Positions 33,003 through 61,857 of a DNA stretch of 64,000 nt are shown here, in pieces; position 1 is the stretch's first letter; the number at the start of each line of letters is the position of its first letter. The notes beneath the pieces were generated by a model. That model did not search any database, was not told where the DNA came from, and was given only the letters and a program-made list of their open reading frames with translations. The translations under genes were made by a program, and so were the position numbers. Source of the DNA: an uncultured Methanoregulaceae archaeon (GTDB lineage Archaea; Halobacteriota; Methanomicrobia; Methanomicrobiales; Methanospirillaceae). The stretch covers positions 480,001-544,000 of the forward strand of contig CAVTTL010000001.1 of the NCBI GenBank assembly GCA_963737635.1, read 5' to 3'.

Positions 33003-34010
33003 CTACATTCGACCCGCCATAAATGATGCGAGATCCAAAAGTCTCCGTGCGTATCCCCATTCGTTGTCGTACCAGATCATCACTTTAACCACATTTCCCC
33101 CGATAACCGCCGTAGAAGAAGCATCGACAATTGCAGATCTGGGATTCCCGACGATATCGGCCGATACCAGCTCTTCCGTAGAATACTCCAGAATGCCACT
33201 GAGTTCCTTTTCGGCCGCGTTTTTCAGAGCCGTATTTACCTCTTCTGCGGTAACCTGTCGTCCAAGGTGCGCGACAACGTCGGTGATCGATCCGTCCGGG
33301 ACGGGGACGCGGATCGCAATGGCATGCATTTTGTCTTTCAGTGCCGGGATGGTCAAAACGGTTGCCTCTGCCGCTCCTGTCGAAGAGGGGATTATCGATA
33401 CGGCGGCTGCACGACCCCGTCGTTTTTTACGGGCAGATTCGTCGACAAGGGCCTGGCTCGAGGTATATGCATGGACGGTTGTCATCATCAGATAATCGAT
33501 ACCGAAAGCATCGTTGAGGACTTTTGCGACCGGTGCAATGCTGTTTGTTGTACATGAAGCGTTTGAAACGACGTGATGCTTTTTGGGATCGAATGTCTTC
33601 TCATTTACTCCCATGACAAAGGTAGCATCAGATTCTGACGCTGGTGCACTGATAATGACTTTTTCAGCACCTGCCTGCAGATGCTTTGCCGCATCCTTTC
33701 GGTGCGTGAAAACCCCGGTGCATTCCAGCACGATATCGATATTATGCTTCTTCCACGGGATCAGGGCCGGGTCCCGGTTATTCACAATAGTGACCCGATG
33801 CGATCCCAGCATAAGAAAATCCGGACCGTAAGAGATGGGAAATGAGGCTTTTCCATGCACTGAATCATATTTGATCAGGTACGCGAGATCCTCCATGGCC
33901 GTCGAGGAATTTGCAGCAGTAAGCTGGATGTTTTCCGGCGGGTTTTCTATATAATGTCTCAGTACAAGCCGGCCAATCCGGCCAAGGCCATTGATAGCAA
34001 CTTTTTTCAT
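33003..34010 (-). CDS. gap: Type I (bacterial-like) glyceraldehyde-3-phosphate dehydrogenase
   Basis: INGLGRIGR, YDSVHG, ECTG, SNASCTTN, TVHAYT, PSSTGAA, RVP, WYDNEWGY. Confidence 0.92.
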   Translation of the reverse strand: MKKVAINGLGRIGRLVLRHYIENPPENIQLTAANSSTAMEDLAYLIKYDSVHGKASFPISYGPDFLMLGSHRVTIVNNRDPALIPWKKHNIDIVLECTGVFTHRKDAAKHLQAGAEKVIISAPASESDATFVMGVNEKTFDPKKHHVVSNASCTTNSIAPVAKVLNDAFGIDYLMMTTVHAYTSSQALVDESARKKRRGRAAAVSIIPSSTGAAEATVLTIPALKDKMHAIAIRVPVPDGSITDVVAHLGRQVTAEEVNTALKNAAEKELSGILEYSTEELVSADIVGNPRSAIVDASSTAVIGGNVVKVMIWYDNEWGYARRLLDLASFMAGRM

Positions 34011-50683: not shown

Positions 50684-51796
50684 TTACACCGGGAGCGGCA
50701 TCTTCGTCGCCTCCATATTCTTTTCCATTTCAAGGATCTCAGCCAGATGAGCCTTTGTGGACGGCCCTTTTGGTACGGCCTTGCAACCGGTTGCTTTGCT
50801 CGTGGACTCCCCATAGGTACCTATCTCCCGGGCGATCGCTATCGCATCTGTCTTGTCAAACCCGATGAGAGGGCGGTAGACCGGGATTTCTGCCGAATCT
50901 GAGAGAACAACCAGATTATCGAGAGTTTGGCTTGCGACCTGTCCAAGTGATTCGCCGTTCACGATACCCTTAGCCCCGACTTTCTGTGCGACAGCCTGCG
51001 CAATACGGTACATCCGGCGTTTACAGAAGATGCAGGTGTACTTCTCCTGCCGGTTTGTGATCAGTTCCTTTTTTGCTGCCGCCAAGTATGGATCGCGTAT
51101 CACCCGGAGCCGGATATCGGGCTGGTACTTTCGCAGCACCTCCACTACCCGTTCGGCCCGGGCAAGCACGGTCTCGTCGAGGAAGGTGTCCAGCGCGACA
51201 AAGATCGGCACGATCCTGCAGCCCCGTTTCATCATCATCCACGCCGCGACCGGGGAATCGATACCTCCCGAGACAAGTGCAACGAGCGTCCCTTCGACCC
51301 CGAGCGGGAGGCCACCGGCTCCTTTTATCACCGTATCGTAGAGGTAGCACTCATCCTGCCGTATTTCGACATGGATCTCGACATCCGGGGCAGCAAGGTT
51401 CACCCTGATATGGGGGAATGCCTTCCGGACCACATCACCGAGCTCAATCGCTTTATCGTTTGATGAAAAATTGTGCTTTCCTACTCTTTTAATGCGCAGC
51501 GCAAACGTCTTTGCCTCGGGAATGCCATGTGCCCTGCTGTATTCGATAACCGCTGTTTCAAGCGGTACGTCACGAGGGACATGTTCGATTTCTGAAAATG
51601 AAACGATCCCAAAGACATGCCTGAGTTTTTCGGGATCGAGATCGCCGGTGATCCAGATTCTGCCGCGTTCGCTTTTTATCTTCAGGTCCGGGATTATCTC
51701 GCGGATGTTGTTTATCAGGACACATTCCCACTGCCGGCGCACCGGGTCCGATTTCAGGAAGATCTCCGAGTACCTGACCAGCCATTTCTTTGTCAT
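50684..51796 (-). CDS. thiI: tRNA 4-thiouridine synthase, rhodanese-less methanogen type
   Basis: VRYSEIFLKS, THUMP domain, GGLPLG, SGGIDSPVA, CIFCKRRM, GESLGQVASQT, third Cys in TGCKAVP. Confidence 0.93.
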   Translation of the reverse strand: MTKKWLVRYSEIFLKSDPVRRQWECVLINNIREIIPDLKIKSERGRIWITGDLDPEKLRHVFGIVSFSEIEHVPRDVPLETAVIEYSRAHGIPEAKTFALRIKRVGKHNFSSNDKAIELGDVVRKAFPHIRVNLAAPDVEIHVEIRQDECYLYDTVIKGAGGLPLGVEGTLVALVSGGIDSPVAAWMMMKRGCRIVPIFVALDTFLDETVLARAERVVEVLRKYQPDIRLRVIRDPYLAAAKKELITNRQEKYTCIFCKRRMYRIAQAVAQKVGAKGIVNGESLGQVASQTLDNLVVLSDSAEIPVYRPLIGFDKTDAIAIAREIGTYGESTSKATGCKAVPKGPSTKAHLAEILEMEKNMEATKMPLPV

Positions 51797-51850
51797 GTTC
51801 ACATTCCTGTCCGACACTAACTCAGGCCTTTTTCCGAATTGGGGAGATTT

Positions 51851-53332
51851 TCATGGTGTCTGCCTCCCGACCAGGGTGCTGATAGCATCGCTCGTAATGA
51901 GCCCGATAACATGCTCTTCATCATCAATGACCGGCAGCGCCGAGATAGAATGAGCTTCCATCTTCCGGGCCGCCTCCTCAACAGGCTCCTTTTCGGTAGT
52001 TGTGACCACATCGCGGCTCATAATCTCATCGAGCCAGAGGAAGTTGGACGCAACCGCCTTTGCGATATCCCACGAAGTGACTATTCCCACGAGCTGGCCG
52101 GTGGCGGAAAGGACCGGGAGGTGGTTGACGCTGCAGTGGATCATCCGCCGGGCGGTGACCGCGATCGTAGTCCCCTCCTCGATGCACTCAACATCCTGGG
52201 TCATTACGTCGCCAACGACCGTATGGGAGAGGAACCTTGTGATCAGGTAATTGAGCTGACCGGATTCAAGAAGGAACGCGTCATGGCCGTAGTTGGAGCG
52301 GATTTCACAGTAATGCACCTCGCGCTCGTTTGCAGTGAGTGCCGTCACGATCTCCTGCGACTGGTAGGGAGGGTAGAGCCAGTCCGAAGTGACTGAGATA
52401 ATAAAGAACGCCGCTTTTGCAGCCGAAAGTCCGGTTGTGAGCGAACCATCCTTTGTCAGATCGAAGTAATCGATAGCTTTTGTGATATAGAGGTACGAGT
52501 TTGCATCAAATCGTTTGGTGAAAGTATCCCCTTGGTGGTGGAGGTAACTCTCCACGGCAAACTCAGTGGAGAAATCAAACCCGACATGGTCTTTTTCCTG
52601 AAGTGCCCTCCCGAACTTTGTGTGCATTGATTCATCGGATAGATACGTGATGTGGCCGACCATTCGTGCCAGCGCAAGGCCGTGCGTGGGAACCCGTTTC
52701 CCATAATAATCCCCGTTATTCCAGTCGGGGTCGGAAATGATGGCTTTCCTACCAACCTCGTTGAAAGCGATCTGCTGGGGTGTTGAGTAGCCGGTCGTGG
52801 CAATCACGATCGCCTTTTTGATCATCGACGGATACGAGATCGTCCATTGGAGCGTCTGCATCCCTCCCATCGACCCCCCGGCGACTGCGTAAAGTTCGGA
52901 AACGCTGAGATAGTCGAGAAGAAGTTTCTGAGCGTTGACCATGTCCCGGATGGTAATGACCGGAAAAGTCGTACCAAAAGGTTTGCCGGTCTCAGGGTTG
53001 AGTGACGAAGGGCCGGTTGATCCCTTGCACCCCCCCAAGACATTGCTGCAGATCACAAAATAGCGATCCGTGTCGAATGCCTTACCGGGCCCGACAACGG
53101 CGTCCCACCAGCCGGGCTTGTCTTCTCCGTCATGAAACCCGGCTATGTGGGCATCGCCAGACAGAGCATGGCAGATGAGGATTGCGTTGCTCTTTTCCTT
53201 GTTGAGCCTGCCGTAGGTCTCGTAGGCGATTGTCACGTGGGAGAGCACCTCGCCGCTTTCAAGGGTGAGTGGCCCTGCGAGGTCGGCGTGTTCTGTCCTG
53301 ACAATGCCTAGAGAGCCACGGAGCATATTCAT
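51851..53332 (-). CDS. metX: Homoserine O-acetyltransferase with C-terminal CBS pair
   Basis: [28 protein letters not shown], then two CBS domains. Confidence 0.93.
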
Positions 53333-53335
53333 ACT

Positions 53336-56160
<2,825 letters not shown>

Positions 56161-56174
56161 GGTAACAACCACAA

Positions 56175-56245
56175 AGCCAGAACCCGGAATCGAACCGGGA
56201 TACGCTGATCTGCAGTCAGCCGCGTAGCCTTTCCGCCATTCTGGC
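56175..56245 (-). tRNA. tRNA-Cys(GCA), canonical (G37, U73)
   Basis: GCCAGAA/TTCTGGC acceptor, GCTGA-CTGCAGA-TCAGC anticodon arm, CCCGG-TTCGATT-CCGGG T arm; ends 14 nt before the pscS ATG. Confidence 0.96.
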
Positions 56246-56252
56246 ACTAGTC

Positions 56253-56267
56253 GTTCACAATTGTGAC
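56253..56267. promoter_or_regulatory. Palindromic operator candidate (Cys-island motif) upstream of tRNA-Cys/pscS
   Basis: GTTCACAATTGTGAC; perfect core TCACAATTGTGA. Confidence 0.7.
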
Positions 56268-56345
56268 TTGATATATTAGTATAGGTAAGGGGATTATTAA
56301 AGGATCATTTTTAGGCAAGATTTACCTTCATGACGAAGAGGTAGA

Positions 56346-56417
56346 AGCCAAGACCTGAATTCGAACTGGGCTGTAGCTGATCTGCAGTCAGCCGCGTAGC
56401 CACTCCGCCATCTTGGT
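56346..56417 (-). pseudogene. Degenerate tRNA-Cys(GCA) (A1-C72 mismatch, broken T stem)
   Basis: Anticodon arm identical and D arm near-identical to the neighbouring tRNA-Cys; acceptor ACCAAGA/TCTTGGC; T arm CCCAG-TTCGAAT-TCAGG. Confidence 0.75.
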
Positions 56418-56423
56418 AGGGAC

Positions 56424-56438
56424 GTTCACTATAGTGAC
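56424..56438. promoter_or_regulatory. Palindromic operator candidate upstream of the second tRNA-Cys
   Basis: GTTCACTATAGTGAC; perfect core TCACTATAGTGA. Confidence 0.65.
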
Positions 56439-56963
56439 ATCGCATATTCCCGTATACCGGATTGTTATTAATAGCCTGATTTGAGGGCATTTTTTGCCGC
56501 AAAAATTGCATGACTGCAAAAGTCATAGAGAACCATTCACGGCAGATTTTGCTTAATTGTAGGGGTTCATGTATCCGGCTCTACCTAGCTGTACTGCGTC
56601 GTTACGGTCAATCTCCCGAAAATATACCCGCAGAACCGGTTATTCCAGCGACTCCTTATAGACAGGGACACGGTCTAATGCAAACAATGTTATTGTCACG
56701 ACCCCAGCCGGTGTTTGCATCAGGGAAACAGGTGAGGAGCGCCATAATAACCGGTAAAAAGAGCTCATAATTCAGCAAAATGCGCTGGAATAATGATTAT
56801 AAATAATCCTATGATTGTTGCGCATAGAGGAATTCAAATCCTGTATCGGGAAAAATAAGGTTATTCCTGCCTCAAATCACGAATATAACCTTATTTTATA
56901 AGATTTAACGTCTATAGGACACATGTATTTCATACACCGTATATATGCGTAGAAACGAAAGAC

Positions 56964-56978
56964 TTAACAATTGTGAAT
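56964..56978. promoter_or_regulatory. Operator candidate upstream of the wHTH regulator
   Basis: TTAACAATTGTGAAT, just downstream of GTATATAT. Confidence 0.62.
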
Positions 56979-57091
56979 TCCCACCTATGTGTGGTGATCC
57001 ACTATGAGGGATCGTTTTTGTCGATCATAACCTAGGCGCGAATGGGGGATCATTCGCACGGATTGGGCACCTGCCACCATCGGCAAAGCTC

Positions 57092-57295
57092 GTGTATAAA
57101 GTGCTGGAAACGAACGGTAAGCTAACGCAGAAGGATCTCATCCGTGAGACTGCACTTCCGTCACGTACTGTTCGGTACGCATTGAACAGGCTCAAGAACG
57201 AAAAGTTCTTGATCGAACATTATTACTTCATTGATGCGCGGCAAAGCCTGTACGGCCTGAACACCAAACCGCAGGAAGAGGTGGTTGCTGTATGA
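57092..57295 (+). CDS. Small archaeal winged-helix DNA-binding protein (true start probably further upstream)
   Basis: In-frame upstream LPPSAKL, then VYKVLE..GKLTQKDL..ETALPSRTVRYALNRL..DARQSLY. Confidence 0.85.
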   Translation: MYKVLETNGKLTQKDLIRETALPSRTVRYALNRLKNEKFLIEHYYFIDARQSLYGLNTKPQEEVVAV

Positions 57296-57782
57296 TGCGT
57301 CCTATGTGTACAACTGGCACGTTCCTCATTTTTCCGGGACAGTGGTAATCCACCACCGTCCCCACTATAATTTTTTTTGGTGATTGCTTAATTAAAGCCA
57401 CCAGGAATCAGTACTATTATGGAAAAAATTCAAAAAATCTCATTTATTTTCCGATATGGAGACGTTCATGGGGGCTTCTCCCCCGCCACTGGGGCTTCCC
57501 CTATGTTGCGATGATGCCGTATTACCTAATCTCATGAAATAATTTGAATTTTCTTGATCTGACTCATATTTCATGTGGAATATCAATCACATGAAAAATT
57601 TTAGTGGCACCAAATGATGAATCACCTTTTTTTATTTTCTCCGCTCCCGTGATGTTACGTTTCCTCGATGTATTTGGGCTCTTTTGAGGATTGGTTCCGG
57701 ATTTAAGAGGAATTTAAAAAAGGTAATAAGGCTTTGGAAAAGTCATCTCGTTAATCCGGCAGACTTATTTTCGAGAGACCCA

Positions 57783-59043
57783 TTAGAGCGGCTTATCAGT
57801 GATAGGTATTCCGGCGGCAACCATACGCTCGCGGATCAGGTCCGCAATGTCAAACTGTTTTTTTGCCCGCAGTTCTGCACGTATATCCTGCAGGACACTG
57901 AGCGGCGCACTTGTCTCACGCAGGAAATTGATGCCGAGAATCTCCCCGTTCTCCCGCAATGCCTCAAGATCGCCGCTTGCTGCAAGTGCCTGGATTGCTG
58001 CCATTGCCATGGGCGTGTTGAGATCAGATTCCATAGCATCGACAAACGCTTTCCGTCCCTTCGTATCTGGCCCCTTATCTTTGGTTGCAATAGCCCGGAT
58101 ATGGTCGAGCCCCCGGGCGGCGTTAGCAAACCCCTCATTAGTTGCCTGGAGCGGCGACCGGTAATGGGAGAGAAGGATGAAGTACCGGAGTATATCTTTA
58201 TTCCATGTTTTGAGAGTATCCCGGATCGTGACAAAGTTCCCCAGAGACTTGGACATCTTTTCGCCTTTTAGCGTAAGAAATCCCGTGTGCAACCAGTATC
58301 TCACCATCGGATGCCTTCCTTCCAAGGACTCCATCTGGGCGATTTCCGCCTCGTGGTGAGGGAAAATCAGAATCTAATCCCCCGCCGTGGATATCGTACT
58401 GCTGGCCGAAGTATTTCTCGGAGATCGCTGTGTCCTCGATATGCCAGCCGGGCCGTCCCCTGCCCCAGGGGGATTCCCAGGTGTACTCCCCGAATTCACC
58501 GAGTTTCCAGAGCACAAAATCCAGAGGGTTGTGCTTAGTTGCGTCGGTTATGCGGCTGACACGCTTTACCCGTTCCTGCCCTGAAAGTTCCCCGTTATGC
58601 CCGAATGTGTCGAGATTGAAATAAACGCCGGTGTCCGTGATATACGCCACATCTCTTTCGACGAGCCGCTGTACCTGGTTGATGATCTCGGGGATATGAG
58701 TGGTAGCCCGGGCATAGTAACTGACAGCGTTGATCCCAAGGGCGTGCATATCCCGGAGGTATTCAGTCTCAAACTTCCTTGCAAGGACACTCTGGGGCAT
58801 GCCCTCCTCTTTTGCACGGTTGATAATCTTGTCGTCAACATCCGTGATATTCTGGAGATAGAATACTTCTTTGCCGGTCGACCGGAGGTACTTTGCAAGG
58901 ACGTCAAAGACAACATATGTCCTAGCATGACCCAGATGCGCGTAATCATAAACGGTCGGACCGCAGACAAAAAGCGCGACCCTGTCCGGGTTGAGAGTCA
59001 CAAGCGGTTCAACGGTTCTTGACAACGTATTATACAGTTCCAT
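57783..59043 (-). CDS. cysS: Cysteinyl-tRNA synthetase, compact (~420 aa; frameshift near 58370)
   Basis: CGPTVYD..HLGHAR, NITDVDDKI, DFVLWK, SPWGRGRPGWHIE, DIHGGG.DL.FPHHE, KMSKSLGN, ADLIR. Confidence 0.93.
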
Positions 59044-59064
59044 AGCAGTGATCCTCTTTTTTGA

Positions 59065-59137
59065 CGCCGGCGGAGGGAGTCGAACCCCCAGACATTCGCT
59101 TTGCAGGCGAAGGCATTTACCGCTCTGCCACACCGGC
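59065..59137 (-). tRNA. Atypical tRNA-Cys(GCA) (A37, apparent G73)
   Basis: GCCGGTG/CGCCGGC acceptor followed by G; TTCGC-CTGCAAA-GCGAA anticodon arm; GGGGG-TTCGACT-CCCTC T arm; 21 nt before the cysS ATG. Confidence 0.88.
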
Positions 59138-59182
59138 TTTTTTCCAAGGACTTGTGTTTCGGATTATTGAACATTTGTGTGA

Positions 59183-59197
59183 GTTCACAATTGTCAA
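59183..59197. promoter_or_regulatory. Operator candidate upstream of tRNA-Cys/cysS
   Basis: GTTCACAATTGTCAA (minus strand TTGACAATTGTGAAC). Confidence 0.65.
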
Positions 59198-59734
59198 TAT
59201 TCGCGTAATGTCAAATATCAGAGATGACAATACCGATCTTTTGCTGCTCATTGGTGTCATCTTATCTTTTCTGACAGGAGATGTGCATGAAATGTGCGGC
59301 TCTGTCATGAAAAAGAATATTATCCCCGGGAAGGCTAACGAATCTCCCGGGCACCATGAAGGGAGGCGATGTAGTTGTGCTGGTGCATGAGGCTTTTTAA
59401 ATTCCGGTAGAGATATCGGCCATCACGGGCGAGATGCCGCCTATGACCCTTCCGGGTTGGGTGCGAGGACGTGAAATCAGGATATGGTGCTCGCCGACAC
59501 ATACCAGGGATCACAGGTCATCCACAGATTATAGTGAGTGCATCCAATCGTGAGACTTTATCGATCAACCTCCGAAGCGTACAATACTGCCCGGAGCTCC
59601 GGATACCGCTGAATCGTTCCACCGGCTTTACCGGTAGTATGTCAGCAAAGGCCCGGGTAGCGGGACCGGGTATATCCCGGCCTGCTGATGGTCCATCGAT
59701 ATTCGCGTGGTGTGCGTTCGTGGCTATTTTTCCC

Positions 59735-59750
59735 GTTCACCTTTGTGAAC
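59735..59750. promoter_or_regulatory. Additional operator candidate in the cysS-cysK intergenic region
   Basis: GTTCACCTTTGTGAAC (GTTCAC-N4-GTGAAC inverted repeat). Confidence 0.5.
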
Positions 59751-59877
59751 AACCAATATGGTCCGTGAAAAGTATTATACCCTGATTTTGCGTCATATTT
59801 TGCCGCCAAATTTATATTTTCCTGAAGAACAGTAGTTTTTTGCTGGAAACCAAGGTATAATATCTGGCTCTATACAA

Positions 59878-59892
59878 TTAACAATTGTGAAC
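59878..59892. promoter_or_regulatory. Operator candidate upstream of cysK
   Basis: TTAACAATTGTGAAC, downstream of TATAATA (59856-59862). Confidence 0.68.
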
Positions 59893-59946
59893 TTCCGGAA
59901 CCTCGCCGGTTTGTGCGGGATGTTCCAGAGTCATAGAGGGAACAGT

Positions 59947-60879
59947 ATGACAAAAATTTATGAGAATATTACAGCAACAATAGGCAACACCCCGCTCGTA
60001 CGGCTGAACCGCCTTACCAGCGGTGCCGGCGCAACGGTGGTTGCCAAGCTTGAATCGTTCAACCCACTGAGCAGCGTCAAGGACCGGATCGGAGTTGCAA
60101 TGCTCGATGATGCTGAAAAGCGCGGGTTGATCAAAAAGGATACGATCATTCTCGAACCAACAAGCGGCAATACCGGGATTGCGCTTGCGTTCGTGAGTGC
60201 GGCCCGGGGATATAAACTCACGCTGGTGATGCCGGAGACCATGAGTGTCGAGCGGCGGAGACTGGCAAAAGCATTCGGTGCGGAGCTGGTGCTTACACCG
60301 GGTGCTGAAGGGATGAAAGGGGCTGTATCCAAGGCCGAGAAGATGGCAGCAGAGAACCCGAAGTACTTTTACATTCCCCAGCAGTTCAACAACCTGGCCA
60401 ACCCGGCAATCCACCGGAAGACTACTGCTGAAGAGATCTGGCGCGACACAGACGGAAAGGTCGATATTGTCATCGCCGGCGTGGGGACGGGAGGAACGAT
60501 CACTGGTATCGCAGACGTGATCAAGAAGAGAAAACCTTCGTTCCGTGCGATTGCCGTTGAACCCGATGCTTCCCCGGTACTCTCCGGAGGGTCTCCCGGT
60601 CCTCACCGCATCCAGGGAATCGGCGCAGGTTTTGTCCCGGAGGTACTCAAGCGCGAGCTAGTGGACGAGATTATTCGTGTCAAAAATGAGGATGCCTTTG
60701 AAATTACGCGGAGACTGGCAAAAGAGGAAGGTATCCTTGCCGGGATCTCCAGCGGCGCAGCGACCTATGCAGCACTTGCGGTCGCAGCGCGTCCGGAAAA
60801 CAAGGGCAAGCTCATTGTCGTTATCCTGCCCGACACCGGGGAACGCTACTTAAGTATCCCCGACCTGTTTGTGGAATAA
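59947..60879 (+). CDS. cysK: Cysteine synthase A (O-acetylserine sulfhydrylase)
   Basis: [52 protein letters not shown]. Confidence 0.96.
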
Positions 60880-60890
60880 GTGAGACGGTC

Positions 60891-61857
60891 ATGATTTTTG
60901 ATCGTCTCCGGGAGGATATCCGAGCTGATTTTCTCCAAGGATCCTGCTGCCCGCTCCACTCTTGAGGTCCTCTTCTGTTACCCGGGGCTTCACGCCCTCT
61001 GGTTCCACCGCAGGGCCCACTGGCTCTGGATCCACGACCTGAAATTCTGGGCCCGGTTCGTTTCCCATATAGGCAGGTTCCTCACCGGGATTGAGATCCA
61101 TCCCGGTGCCATAATCGGGCGGCGGGTGGTCATCGACCATGGTATGGGGGTCGTTATCGGCGAGACAGCCGAGATTGGGGATGATGTCCTCATCTACATG
61201 GGTGTGGTGCTCGGCGGCACGGCGCTCGAGAATGTCAAGCGCCACCCGACTGTCGAGGACGGTGTGATCCTTGGATCCGGCGCTATCGTCCTTGGTCCCA
61301 TCCGTATCGGTAAGGGCGCAAAGGTCGGTGCCGGGTCAGTTGTAGTCCGGTCCGTCCCGCCCGGTGCGACGGTTGTCGGTGTTCCGGGCAGGATCGCCGG
61401 CCCGGAGCCTGGTTCCCCAGATGAGACGATCGAAGAGGTGATGCCCGACCCGATGCTCCGGGTGGTGAGCCGGCTGCTGGACCGGCAGAACCAGCTCGAG
61501 GAACGGCTCCGCACTTTCGAGCAGGCGCAGCCAGGCCCAATCTCCCCCGCAACCCGGCAGGAGATCGTCTGCGAGAACGAGATCCGAGAAGCGTTAAAGG
61601 AAGTGATTGATCCCGAGGTAGGTATTGATATCGTTGACCTCGGGCTCATCAAGGAGATACGGGTGAAAGGCACCAGCGTAGAGATCGACATGGTCCTTAC
61701 CTGCAAAGCCTGCCCCCTCTCCGATCACCTCTCCGGGCAGGTGCAGCGCAAGGCGTTCGGAGTCTGCGGCATTGAGCACGTTACCGTGAACGTGCTTGAC
61801 GAGCCGTGGAACTGGGACCGGTTTGTGAAGCAACGGGGAAACTTCAGACAGATCTGA
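60891..61857 (+). CDS. cysE: Serine O-acetyltransferase fused to a C-terminal DUF59/SufT (FeS_assembly_P) domain (frameshift near 60926)
   Basis: [10 protein letters not shown] / [38 protein letters not shown]; then [25 protein letters not shown]. Confidence 0.92.

Follow-up and report, generated by a model that had tools for sequence, protein, structure and literature searches.

The question raised by this locus is what a palindrome that recurs throughout a small cysteine-related gene island is for, and which protein reads it. The island lies within a 64,000-nt stretch (here, the window) of contig C1 of G000, the 2.46-Mb assembly of an uncultured Methanoregulaceae archaeon, and carries three tRNA-Cys genes, genes of both routes to cysteine, and a small winged helix-turn-helix (wHTH) gene. 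The original prediction took the palindrome for the operator of a cysteine regulon and the wHTH protein for its dimeric, autoregulated repressor. We instead favor a joint reading, to which we assign a probability of about 0.6, in which the palindrome would be the operator of a conserved sulfur regulon, a four-cysteine helix-turn-helix (HTH) protein encoded outside the window (here, HC) would be its most likely binder, and the wHTH protein would be made only via a programmed +1 frameshift.

All six palindromes that had been claimed could be read in the sequence. The operator consensus is TTCAC-AATT-GTGAA, and searches used the 14-mer TTCACAATTGTGAA. The site at 56253..56267 has one mismatch in the 14-mer core, ends 8 nt before tRNA-Cys no. 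1, and heads the tRNA-Cys/SepCysS/metY/metX-CBS/thiI unit. A weak variant at 56424..56438, 7 nt before tRNA-Cys no. 2, has three mismatches yet is symmetric. The third site (56963..56978) is in the wHTH promoter, the fourth (59183..59197) lies 46 nt upstream of tRNA-Cys no. 3 and cysS, and the cysK-cysE operator (59878..59892) follows a TATA-like box by ∼15 nt and precedes the cysK start by 55 nt. The remaining palindrome, GTTCAC-CTTT-GTGAAC (59735..59750), shares the half-sites of the others, has a different center, and is without an assigned gene.

At up to three mismatches, TTCACAATTGTGAA matched the window nine times, versus 3.16 ± 1.56 times in shuffled sequence, and none of 100 shuffles reached nine. 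At up to one mismatch, there were five matches in the whole of G000, versus ∼0.4 expected by simple arithmetic; four of these fall inside the 3.6-kb island. The genome-wide count at up to two mismatches (nine matches versus ∼8 expected) is near chance, and thus matches inside open reading frames (ORFs) (window 33781, C1:201147, and C1:2131631) may be accidental and provide no evidence, and the 59735 site is supported by its location alone. The first of the intra-ORF matches, TTCACAATAGTGAC at window 33781-33794, has two mismatches, lies within a GAPDH-like ORF on the minus strand (G000 C1:513003-514073), and is probably a chance occurrence.

The fifth genomic match at up to one mismatch is a perfect copy (C1:434935) that lies in the intergenic region between divergent genes: to one side, a unit encoding a cysteine desulfurase (class-V aminotransferase), IscU, and a ThiF-like protein, and to the other, the HC gene, followed by genes for a LarE-like PP-loop protein and FdhD. 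A second, weaker palindrome copy lies 26 nt beyond it. The location of the fifth site between iscSU and HC ties the motif to sulfur and Fe-S genes generally, beyond the cysteine island.

We then followed the motif through related genomes, counting matches at up to one mismatch. Of 41 relatives, 33 have it, as do 67 of the order's 151 sampled genomes, for 265 matches in total, which cluster within a few kilobases; a reversed-pattern control gave zero to two matches per genome. To describe gene content, units downstream of each site were annotated in 20 motif-bearing stretches from 11 genomes. These loci, like the tRNA loci discussed below, were picked for containing the motif, and the counts therefore describe the neighbors of the motif and are no test against background. 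Of 106 downstream ORFs, 69 had a Pfam match, and 52 of these 69 proteins belong to cysteine or methionine synthesis, sulfur mobilization or transfer, or Fe-S assembly (cysK, cysE, SepCysS, metY, metX, class-V aminotransferases, NifU, ThiF, ThiS/SAMP, FdhD, PP-loop, ThiI, and TauE). Nine more are Fe-S proteins (NadA, radical SAM, CDGSH, Rieske, and CCG/Fer4), and eight are from other families.

A scan of 301 genomes of the phylum revealed a second motif-bearing family, f7, which is outside the order; 34 of 37 genomes of this family contain the motif. Annotation of three f7 genomes assigned 24 of the 29 downstream proteins with a Pfam match to the same sulfur, cysteine, and Fe-S kinds, in units that include SepCysS-ThiF-MoaE, IscS-IscU, NadA, ThiM-ThiE, and Thi4, and a tRNA-Cys gene directly follows a site in two of the three. 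Overall, sites sit on or just after the promoters of tRNA-Cys, SepCysS-metY-metX, cysK-cysE, iscSU, nadA, and thiamine genes. These comparisons agree with the proposal of a cysteine/sulfur regulon that would take in tRNA-Cys genes and both cysteine routes, with the palindrome as its conserved, operator-like site. The regulon is broader than cysteine, as Fe-S assembly, sulfur transfer, nadA, and thiamine-thiazole genes also bear the site.

The tRNA-Cys genes are an unusual part of this set. Within the window, ARAGORN and Rfam both upheld three tRNA-Cys(GCA) genes, all on the minus strand: no. 1 at 56175..56245 (57.6 bits in Rfam), no. 2 at 56346..56417 (31.4 bits; gathering score, 29), and no. 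3 at 59065..59137, the sequence of which is unlike those of the other three tRNA-Cys genes of G000. Among 13 tRNA-Cys genes from the motif-selected loci and the window, 11 have an upstream site at up to one mismatch, and 10 of these 11 sites end 6 to 15 nt before the mature 5′ end, the exception being the window's third tRNA (46 nt). In several tRNA-Cys promoters, a second palindrome copy abuts the TATA box, 26 nt away center to center. G000 has four tRNA-Cys genes. Sites are confined to the three island copies; the remaining gene, at C1:591021-591092, has a TATA-type promoter of the usual kind, with no palindrome, and may be a constitutive copy. Two further peculiarities are that tRNA-Cys no. 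3 apparently has G rather than U as its discriminator base and that tRNA-Cys no. 2, which starts with A and combines a low Rfam score with the most degenerate operator, may be a decaying copy. In these organisms, cysteine is made on tRNA-Cys via SepRS and SepCysS. Given this chemistry and the presence of sepS in G000, coregulation of extra tRNA-Cys with SepCysS would make biochemical sense, and placing both under one operator fits a role for tRNA-Cys as a biosynthetic scaffold, beyond that of a translation adaptor.

The position of the palindrome within promoters suggests how it might act. As had been noted, a TATA-like box is present ∼28 bp upstream of the first two sites (56253 and 56424). 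HC promoters (35 distinct ones) have an AT-rich box centered ∼27 nt before the palindrome center, which places the palindrome on the expected start site, and the cysK promoter of the window has the same layout. In tRNA-Cys promoters, the TATA box is farther upstream and the palindrome comes shortly behind the expected start. The wHTH promoters, of which 82 distinct ones were compared, always have TTAAC as the left half-site; it abuts a conserved CGAAA-type block and probably doubles as the B recognition element (BRE) and TATA box, and a Shine-Dalgarno sequence follows the palindrome by ∼20 nt; the window's own wHTH operator has this arrangement and probably overlaps the BRE/TATA region. All three layouts are typical of archaeal repressors. 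The predicted position of the site, either on or just after the start or over the TATA box, is thus compatible with the dimeric repressor of the original prediction: a dimer on the palindrome would block TBP/TFB or RNA polymerase. In addition, f7 wHTH promoters (L299, L300, L301, and L302) have two or three tandem palindromes, 14 to 15 nt apart.

The same evidence bears on whether the palindrome is a protein operator at all, rather than another kind of repeat, such as a leader RNA hairpin, a mobile-element end, or a restriction-type site. The CAATTG in its core is a typical restriction palindrome, and in some tRNA leaders the palindrome would be transcribed, provided that the start site is upstream. 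However, it is found in either position relative to genes, always in promoter regions, and at a fixed distance from TATA-like boxes. Its symmetry is kept through paired changes (TTAAC...GTTAA in one genus), and it tracks one regulator family over 151 genomes. As RNA, it would form a stem of only 5 bp, and Rfam finds only tRNAs there. We therefore consider a nonoperator origin highly improbable and continue to treat the palindrome as a likely operator.

Which protein binds it was addressed by tabulating regulators over the 151 genomes. HC is a 113-aa, XRE-like HTH protein with four cysteines (G000 C1:434993-435334), and close orthologues were called at E ≤ 1e-28. Such an orthologue is present in all 37 genomes with at least three motif matches. 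Another 60 genomes have at most a distant HC paralogue; not one of these reaches three matches, and two have two. A close wHTH orthologue occurs in 21 genomes, all of which also have HC and at least two matches (20 have at least three). The original prediction had expected motif matches in this and related genomes to be enriched at sulfur-gene promoters and to co-occur with the wHTH gene; in the annotated loci, which were picked for the motif, matches did lie mainly beside such genes, and a wHTH orthologue is present in only 20 of the 37 motif-rich genomes. Of the 17 without one, G025, G030, and G040 (93 to 99% complete) have no match at all to the wHTH query. The presence of HC in 37/37 genomes and the absence of wHTH from 17/37 indicate that wHTH is not needed for operator maintenance.

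HC also has a palindrome of its own, which precedes the HC start in nearly all of the 37 loci, mostly by 44 to 47 nt, and does likewise in f7. In all inspected genomes that have HC and lack a motif match, variant operators lie before HC. One of these, TTAACAATTGTTAA, is symmetric and occurs before HC in six genomes of one genus. Another, the N3-spaced TCAC-AAT-GTGA, occurs in four loci of genus g20 (L111, L113, L118, and L123), where an operator with a 3-base spacer would explain the presence of HC without 14-mer matches. We also observed that an HC recognition helix of the form TP.AIS.Y.TGKRG co-occurs with TTAACAATTGTTAA (12/12), which, coming from one genus, amounts to a single event and serves as a hint only.

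On this distribution, HC is the better candidate for the operator-binding repressor, the assignment first proposed, to wHTH, is probably wrong, and wHTH more plausibly belongs among the regulon's members. Consistent with the first proposal, in which wHTH itself is the dimeric autoregulated repressor and HC a mere member or cofactor, the palindrome is present in every orthologous wHTH promoter (82 distinct), wHTH-positive genomes all carry two or more sites, and the winged-helix domain scores above the Pfam cutoff (HTH_24, PF13412; 26.6 bits versus 21.9; residues 29 to 65 of the 95-aa frame). Paralogues of the two proteins also form a conserved pair behind TTAAC-N3-GTTAA, where either could bind. 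Against it stands the set of 17 motif-rich genomes that have HC and no wHTH orthologue, and we consider wHTH quite unlikely as the repressor. The paralogue pair, a two-gene unit at G000 C1:1230013-1230565 in which the paralogues occupy C1:1230013-1230527 and the wHTH paralogue has a normal ATG start, lies behind the only exact TTAAC-N3-GTTAA in G000, the pair's own promoter. We considered this sequence as the mark of a second regulon and rejected the idea, as no regulon can be derived from a single exact copy.

HC, the favored binder, would control its own gene and might sense sulfur or Fe-S. Cysteines C6, C88, C91, and C102 are invariant in 36 sequences, a layout (one N-terminal cysteine, then CxxC, then one more) that differs from that of Rrf2/IscR, and no Rrf2 match was found for HC in Pfam or NCBIfam up to an E value of 1. 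Against HTH_3 (PF01381), HC scores 20.6 bits, below the cutoff of 23; PF01381 is precomputed on some HC relatives, the nearest Atlas clusters are 45 to 68% HTH_3, and the source annotation reads only “transcriptional regulator.” Its AlphaFold model is all-helical, with a mean predicted local distance difference test (pLDDT) score of 76.9. Foldseek found no match to the model in the PDB with E ≤ 0.001, and the best Z score in a wide VIA-align search, 5.5, is within the noise range for helical models. A likeness to CstR/CsoR (Z score, 3.5) was dismissed as not meaningful. A contig search with HC returned only Methanoregula-type records, with no link to model organisms.

What, then, does the wHTH gene encode, and how is it started? 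The coordinates first given for it, 57092-57295, describe a truncated ORF. The frame is open from 57008, and its first ATG, GTG, or TTG is at 57092, within the domain. The likely start is instead an out-of-frame ATG at 57004, which stands 3 nt behind the Shine-Dalgarno sequence GGTGATCC (56993..57000, plus strand), a perfect complement of the 16S rRNA 3′ end of G000 (GGATCACCTCCT). In frame 0, this ATG opens a short ORF (57004..57030, plus strand) that reads ATG AGG GAT CGT TTT TGT CGA TCA TAA, encoding MRDRFCRS and then a stop; this is likely the true wHTH initiation site. A +1 shift site is proposed at 57016..57021 (plus strand), on the basis of conservation, and the +1-frame wHTH body with its HTH_24 domain spans 57020..57295 (plus strand), for a predicted product of ∼96 aa. 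The wHTH frame begins G-I-V-F-V and continues with a variable linker to the invariant HLPPSAKLVY of the first helix. Gene callers assign the family lengths of 62 to 95 aa, an inconsistency that would be explained by a gene without a normal start.

To characterize this arrangement, which occurs once in G000, we sampled 20 loci from genomes of the order and 80 metagenomic loci, of which 96 of 100 could be parsed, giving 80 distinct sequences. The cassette consists of a Shine-Dalgarno sequence, an ATG one frame off, and then AG(G/T) GAT CGT (T/C)TT TG(T/C). The Shine-Dalgarno sequence with ATG is present in 80/80, as is ATGA before the wHTH frame. Codon 3 is GAT in 80/80, codon 4 is CGT in 76/80, codon 5 is TTT in 62, CTT in 17, and CGT in 1, and codon 6 is TGT in 78 and TGC in 2; many cassettes have two consecutive Cys codons. 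The lone sequence without a slippery codon 5 has an in-frame GTG. Frame 0 terminates after 6 to 19 codons in 80/80, and the third frame closes within 13 codons. The first wHTH-frame codon is GGG in 68 sequences and GTG in 12, with no start codon at that position in the GGG type. In f7, the same cassette was found in 17 of 18 parsed loci (22 fetched; 4 unparsed), with CGT, CGC, or CGA as codon 4, TTT-T in 17/17, and usually a stop directly after. The f7 wHTH proteins have a basic linker of ∼30 residues and a C-terminal extension that Methanoregula lacks, and in both linker and C terminus they are unrelated to the Methanoregula proteins.

Several features point to a programmed shift within this cassette. 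A sequence resembling a Shine-Dalgarno site, GAGGGAUC or GAGUGAUC, stops 2 nt short of the slippery codon and may act as a stimulator; the segment GAGGGATC or GAGTGATC, with the same end point, equals AGGAGGTGATCC, the complement of the 16S rRNA 3′ end, bar one missing or changed base. Positions where a change would leave the wHTH-frame protein unaltered are constrained at the nucleotide level: Val before Phe is written GTT or GTC in 79/80, though 42% of the Val codons of G000 are GTA or GTG, TTT encodes Phe in 79/80, and Ile is ATC in 78/80. TGT, the predominant codon 6, is read by wobble and is the less used of the two Cys codons, at 34% in G000. A further comparison drew on 99 distinct cassettes from the two groups, which had been selected with a pattern that already demands the cassette. 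Any of the four bases can follow the shift site. In the +1 frame each still gives Val, whereas frame 0 has nine meanings at this point, with 15 stops, and thus the frame downstream of the shift is clear. Transcriptional slippage was discarded as an explanation, as 17/80 cassettes have only T3 (CGT CTT TGT).

We propose that translation would start at ATG 57004 behind the perfect Shine-Dalgarno sequence and read M-R-D-R-F. With the Cys codon TGT (57019-57021) awaiting its tRNA in the A site, peptidyl-tRNA-Phe on TTT would then re-pair one base on (TTT, 57017-57019); in CTT variants, tRNA-Leu would occupy the P site instead of tRNA-Phe. The +1 slip would lead into the wHTH frame, and without it, ribosomes would terminate within a few codons. 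Scarce Cys-tRNA(Cys) would lengthen the pause and raise shifting, and production of the wHTH protein would require both derepression of the regulon and a shortage of charged tRNA-Cys. Under such control, a repressor role for wHTH would be counterhomeostatic, which also argues against the first assignment; as a guess, wHTH may counteract repression or activate Cys-tRNA supply. The candidate Cys-codon +1 switch at 57004-57022 appears well supported by comparison across genomes. The fuller proposal, that wHTH serves as a ribosome-based cysteine gauge operating by a +1 shift at a hungry Cys codon, atop HC as a sulfur- or Fe-S-sensing repressor, is in our view about an even bet.

The main alternative is that no frameshift occurs. 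The short ORF would be a Cys-codon leader peptide or an incidental overlap, and wHTH would be initiated separately, at GTG where present, at a noncanonical ATC or ATT, or at GTG 57092 to give a 67-aa protein. This would suit the sequences with GTG as the first wHTH-frame codon, the conservation of GTG-TAT at 57092 in both relatives checked, and the frequent choice of the short form by gene callers; leader ORFs that sense cysteine by pausing at Cys codons exist in mycobacteria, according to part of one report (10.1101/834739). Against this, GGG stands at the first position in 68/80 sequences and alternates with GTG among close relatives (GGG in G000 and GTG in G108, the protein of which is 97% identical), and hence GTG does not look essential. 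In 58 of the 73 distinct sequences of the GGG type, the wHTH frame contains neither ATG, GTG, nor TTG ahead of HLPPS, so that the downstream gene mostly lacks the start and ribosome-binding site (RBS) of its own that a leader-peptide arrangement calls for. The IGHLPPSAKL segment before 57092 is conserved as protein despite third-position changes. The linker has six lengths (15 to 20 codons) and is always in frame, the ATC is 10 nt from the Shine-Dalgarno sequence versus 3 nt for the ATG, and the bias of the Val codon toward GTT/GTC likewise argues against separate initiation. We regard separate initiation as unlikely and retain the programmed +1 frameshift.

Several observations weigh against the joint reading of operator, HC, and frameshift. 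Repression is deduced from promoter geometry alone, the sampled related genomes are not independent of one another, and the tRNA and gene-content loci were preselected for the motif. HC orthologues occur in 26 genomes that have no motif match at up to one mismatch. Every wHTH-positive genome has both HC and the motif, the wHTH gene always bears the site, and wHTH may be a cobinder with HC; the adjacency of wHTH and HC paralogues, which was seen in search hit tables for many genomes in all six families, raises the possibility that the two protein families act together. With regard to the shift, changes upstream of the site are silent in frame 0 (Arg) six times and in the +1 frame three times, so that the upstream stretch looks doubly constrained and the frame switch is not cleanly resolved there. 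An in-frame GTG directly follows the ATG in 12 of the 80 sequences, and conservation of Phe-Val in the +1 frame would equally give a conserved TTT-TGT.

The remaining genes of the island were as predicted, with identities upheld by NCBIfam and Pfam. On the minus strand are thiI (50684..51817; tRNA 4-thiouridine/thiamine sulfurtransferase), a homoserine O-acetyltransferase gene, metX, fused to a CBS pair (51851..53332), metY (53336..54742; O-acetylhomoserine sulfhydrylase), and the gene for SepCysS, the Sep-tRNA:Cys-tRNA synthase (54796..56160; NF006810, 628 bits). On the plus strand are cysK (59947..60879; O-acetylserine sulfhydrylase) and cysE (60898..61857; serine acetyltransferase fused to an FeS_assembly_P domain). 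Both the cysE-FeS_assembly_P (SufT-like) and the metX-CBS fusions recur in relatives. The CysRS gene cysS (57783..59043, minus strand) is in two frames (57783-58334 and 58198-59043), with a 1-nt insertion near 58340-58350. A programmed frameshift in cysS was rejected, as the extra base is missing from four relatives and sepS (SepRS) is likewise split in the assembly, into two frames at G000 C1:1128217-1129792. Given that both genes are broken and that both Cys-tRNA routes cannot fail together, at least one break is probably an assembly indel. The 750-nt spacer between tRNA-Cys no. 3 and cysK (59198-59946) contains the variant palindrome at 59735 and no recognizable gene or Rfam family, and a permissive Rfam scan of window positions 55500-60500 returned the three tRNAs and nothing else.

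How methanogens control their supply of cysteine, sulfur, and Fe-S is largely uncharted. Among archaea, fucA1 is a case of -1 frameshifting. In keeping with the original prediction, which knew of no such regulon, full-text searches, supplements aside, turned up no description of one, nor any of the operator, HC, or the frameshift. The section of a 2020 Methanosarcina ISC study that we consulted names no regulator (PMC7585200). The frameshift cases given in the consulted part of a 2021 review of archaeal recoding are archaeal viruses and a suggested magnesium chelatase, and the sole +1 case named there is from one haloarchaeal virus (PMC8211752). If our reading is correct, and going by that part of the review, the wHTH cassette would be the first programmed +1 frameshift in a cellular archaeal gene. 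It would also represent natural sensing of an aminoacyl-tRNA by frameshifting that controls a regulator of the same amino acid, with a gauge conserved across two orders of methanogens. The cassette would thereby add a rare kind of sensor, a sense-codon, amino-acid-specific switch.

Known systems resemble individual parts of this proposal. The bacterial repressors IscR (Rrf2), SufR, and CymR respond to Fe-S or cysteine status and are autoregulated, small, Cys-bearing HTH proteins with palindromic operators. The regulon described here would work like theirs, with palindromes at the promoters of cysteine desulfurase/IscU and cysteine-synthesis genes and a Cys-bearing HTH candidate. In contrast to these repressors, HC has no Rrf2 or other sensor-family domain, only a subthreshold HTH_3 match, and no convincing likeness to a solved structure, and the regulon includes tRNA-Cys genes and SepCysS and operates at archaeal promoters. 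T-box leaders of Gram-positive cysS and cysE operons couple expression to tRNA-Cys charging, a link that we also propose here. In the T-box, however, the RNA binds uncharged tRNA directly, whereas the sensor proposed here is the ribosomal A site, and Rfam found no T-box at this locus.

The anatomy of the cassette is closest to that of prfB, the bacterial gene for release factor 2, in which a programmed +1 frameshift is homeostatic: a shortage of the decoding factor raises shifting. The two share early termination in frame 0, a CUU-U or UUU-U P site, and a protein in the +1 frame. The sequence resembling a Shine-Dalgarno site 2 nt upstream of the slippery codon may correspond to the prfB stimulator, the A-site codon may likewise be slow to decode, and the proposed logic is homeostatic. 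Initiation in frame 0 followed by an early stop was found throughout (Shine-Dalgarno sequence 3 nt before the ATG; stop in 80/80), as was a P-site codon able to re-pair, with a single exception (TTT-T in 62 and CTT-T in 17 of 80; 17/17 in f7). Where prfB has a stop codon in the A site, the cassette has a sense codon for Cys (TGT in 78, TGC in 2), and it would thus work like prfB without being a member of that class. Other differences from prfB are that the quantity sensed would be Cys-tRNA(Cys) and not a release factor, that the product is a DNA-binding protein and not a decoding factor, that the host is an archaeon, and that the shift would come five codons after initiation.

As a cysteine sensor, the cassette has its closest precedent in the mycobacterial “Cys ribulon,” in which, as set out in part of the report cited above, pausing at the Cys codons of polycysteine leader ORFs reports cysteine supply and controls cysteine-metabolism genes (10.1101/834739). 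The likeness lies in the use of Cys codons within a very short ORF as the proposed sensor. By that account, the mycobacterial pause opens an RNA structure that hides the next RBS, whereas here most wHTH frames have no start or RBS of their own, and a change of frame would therefore be needed.

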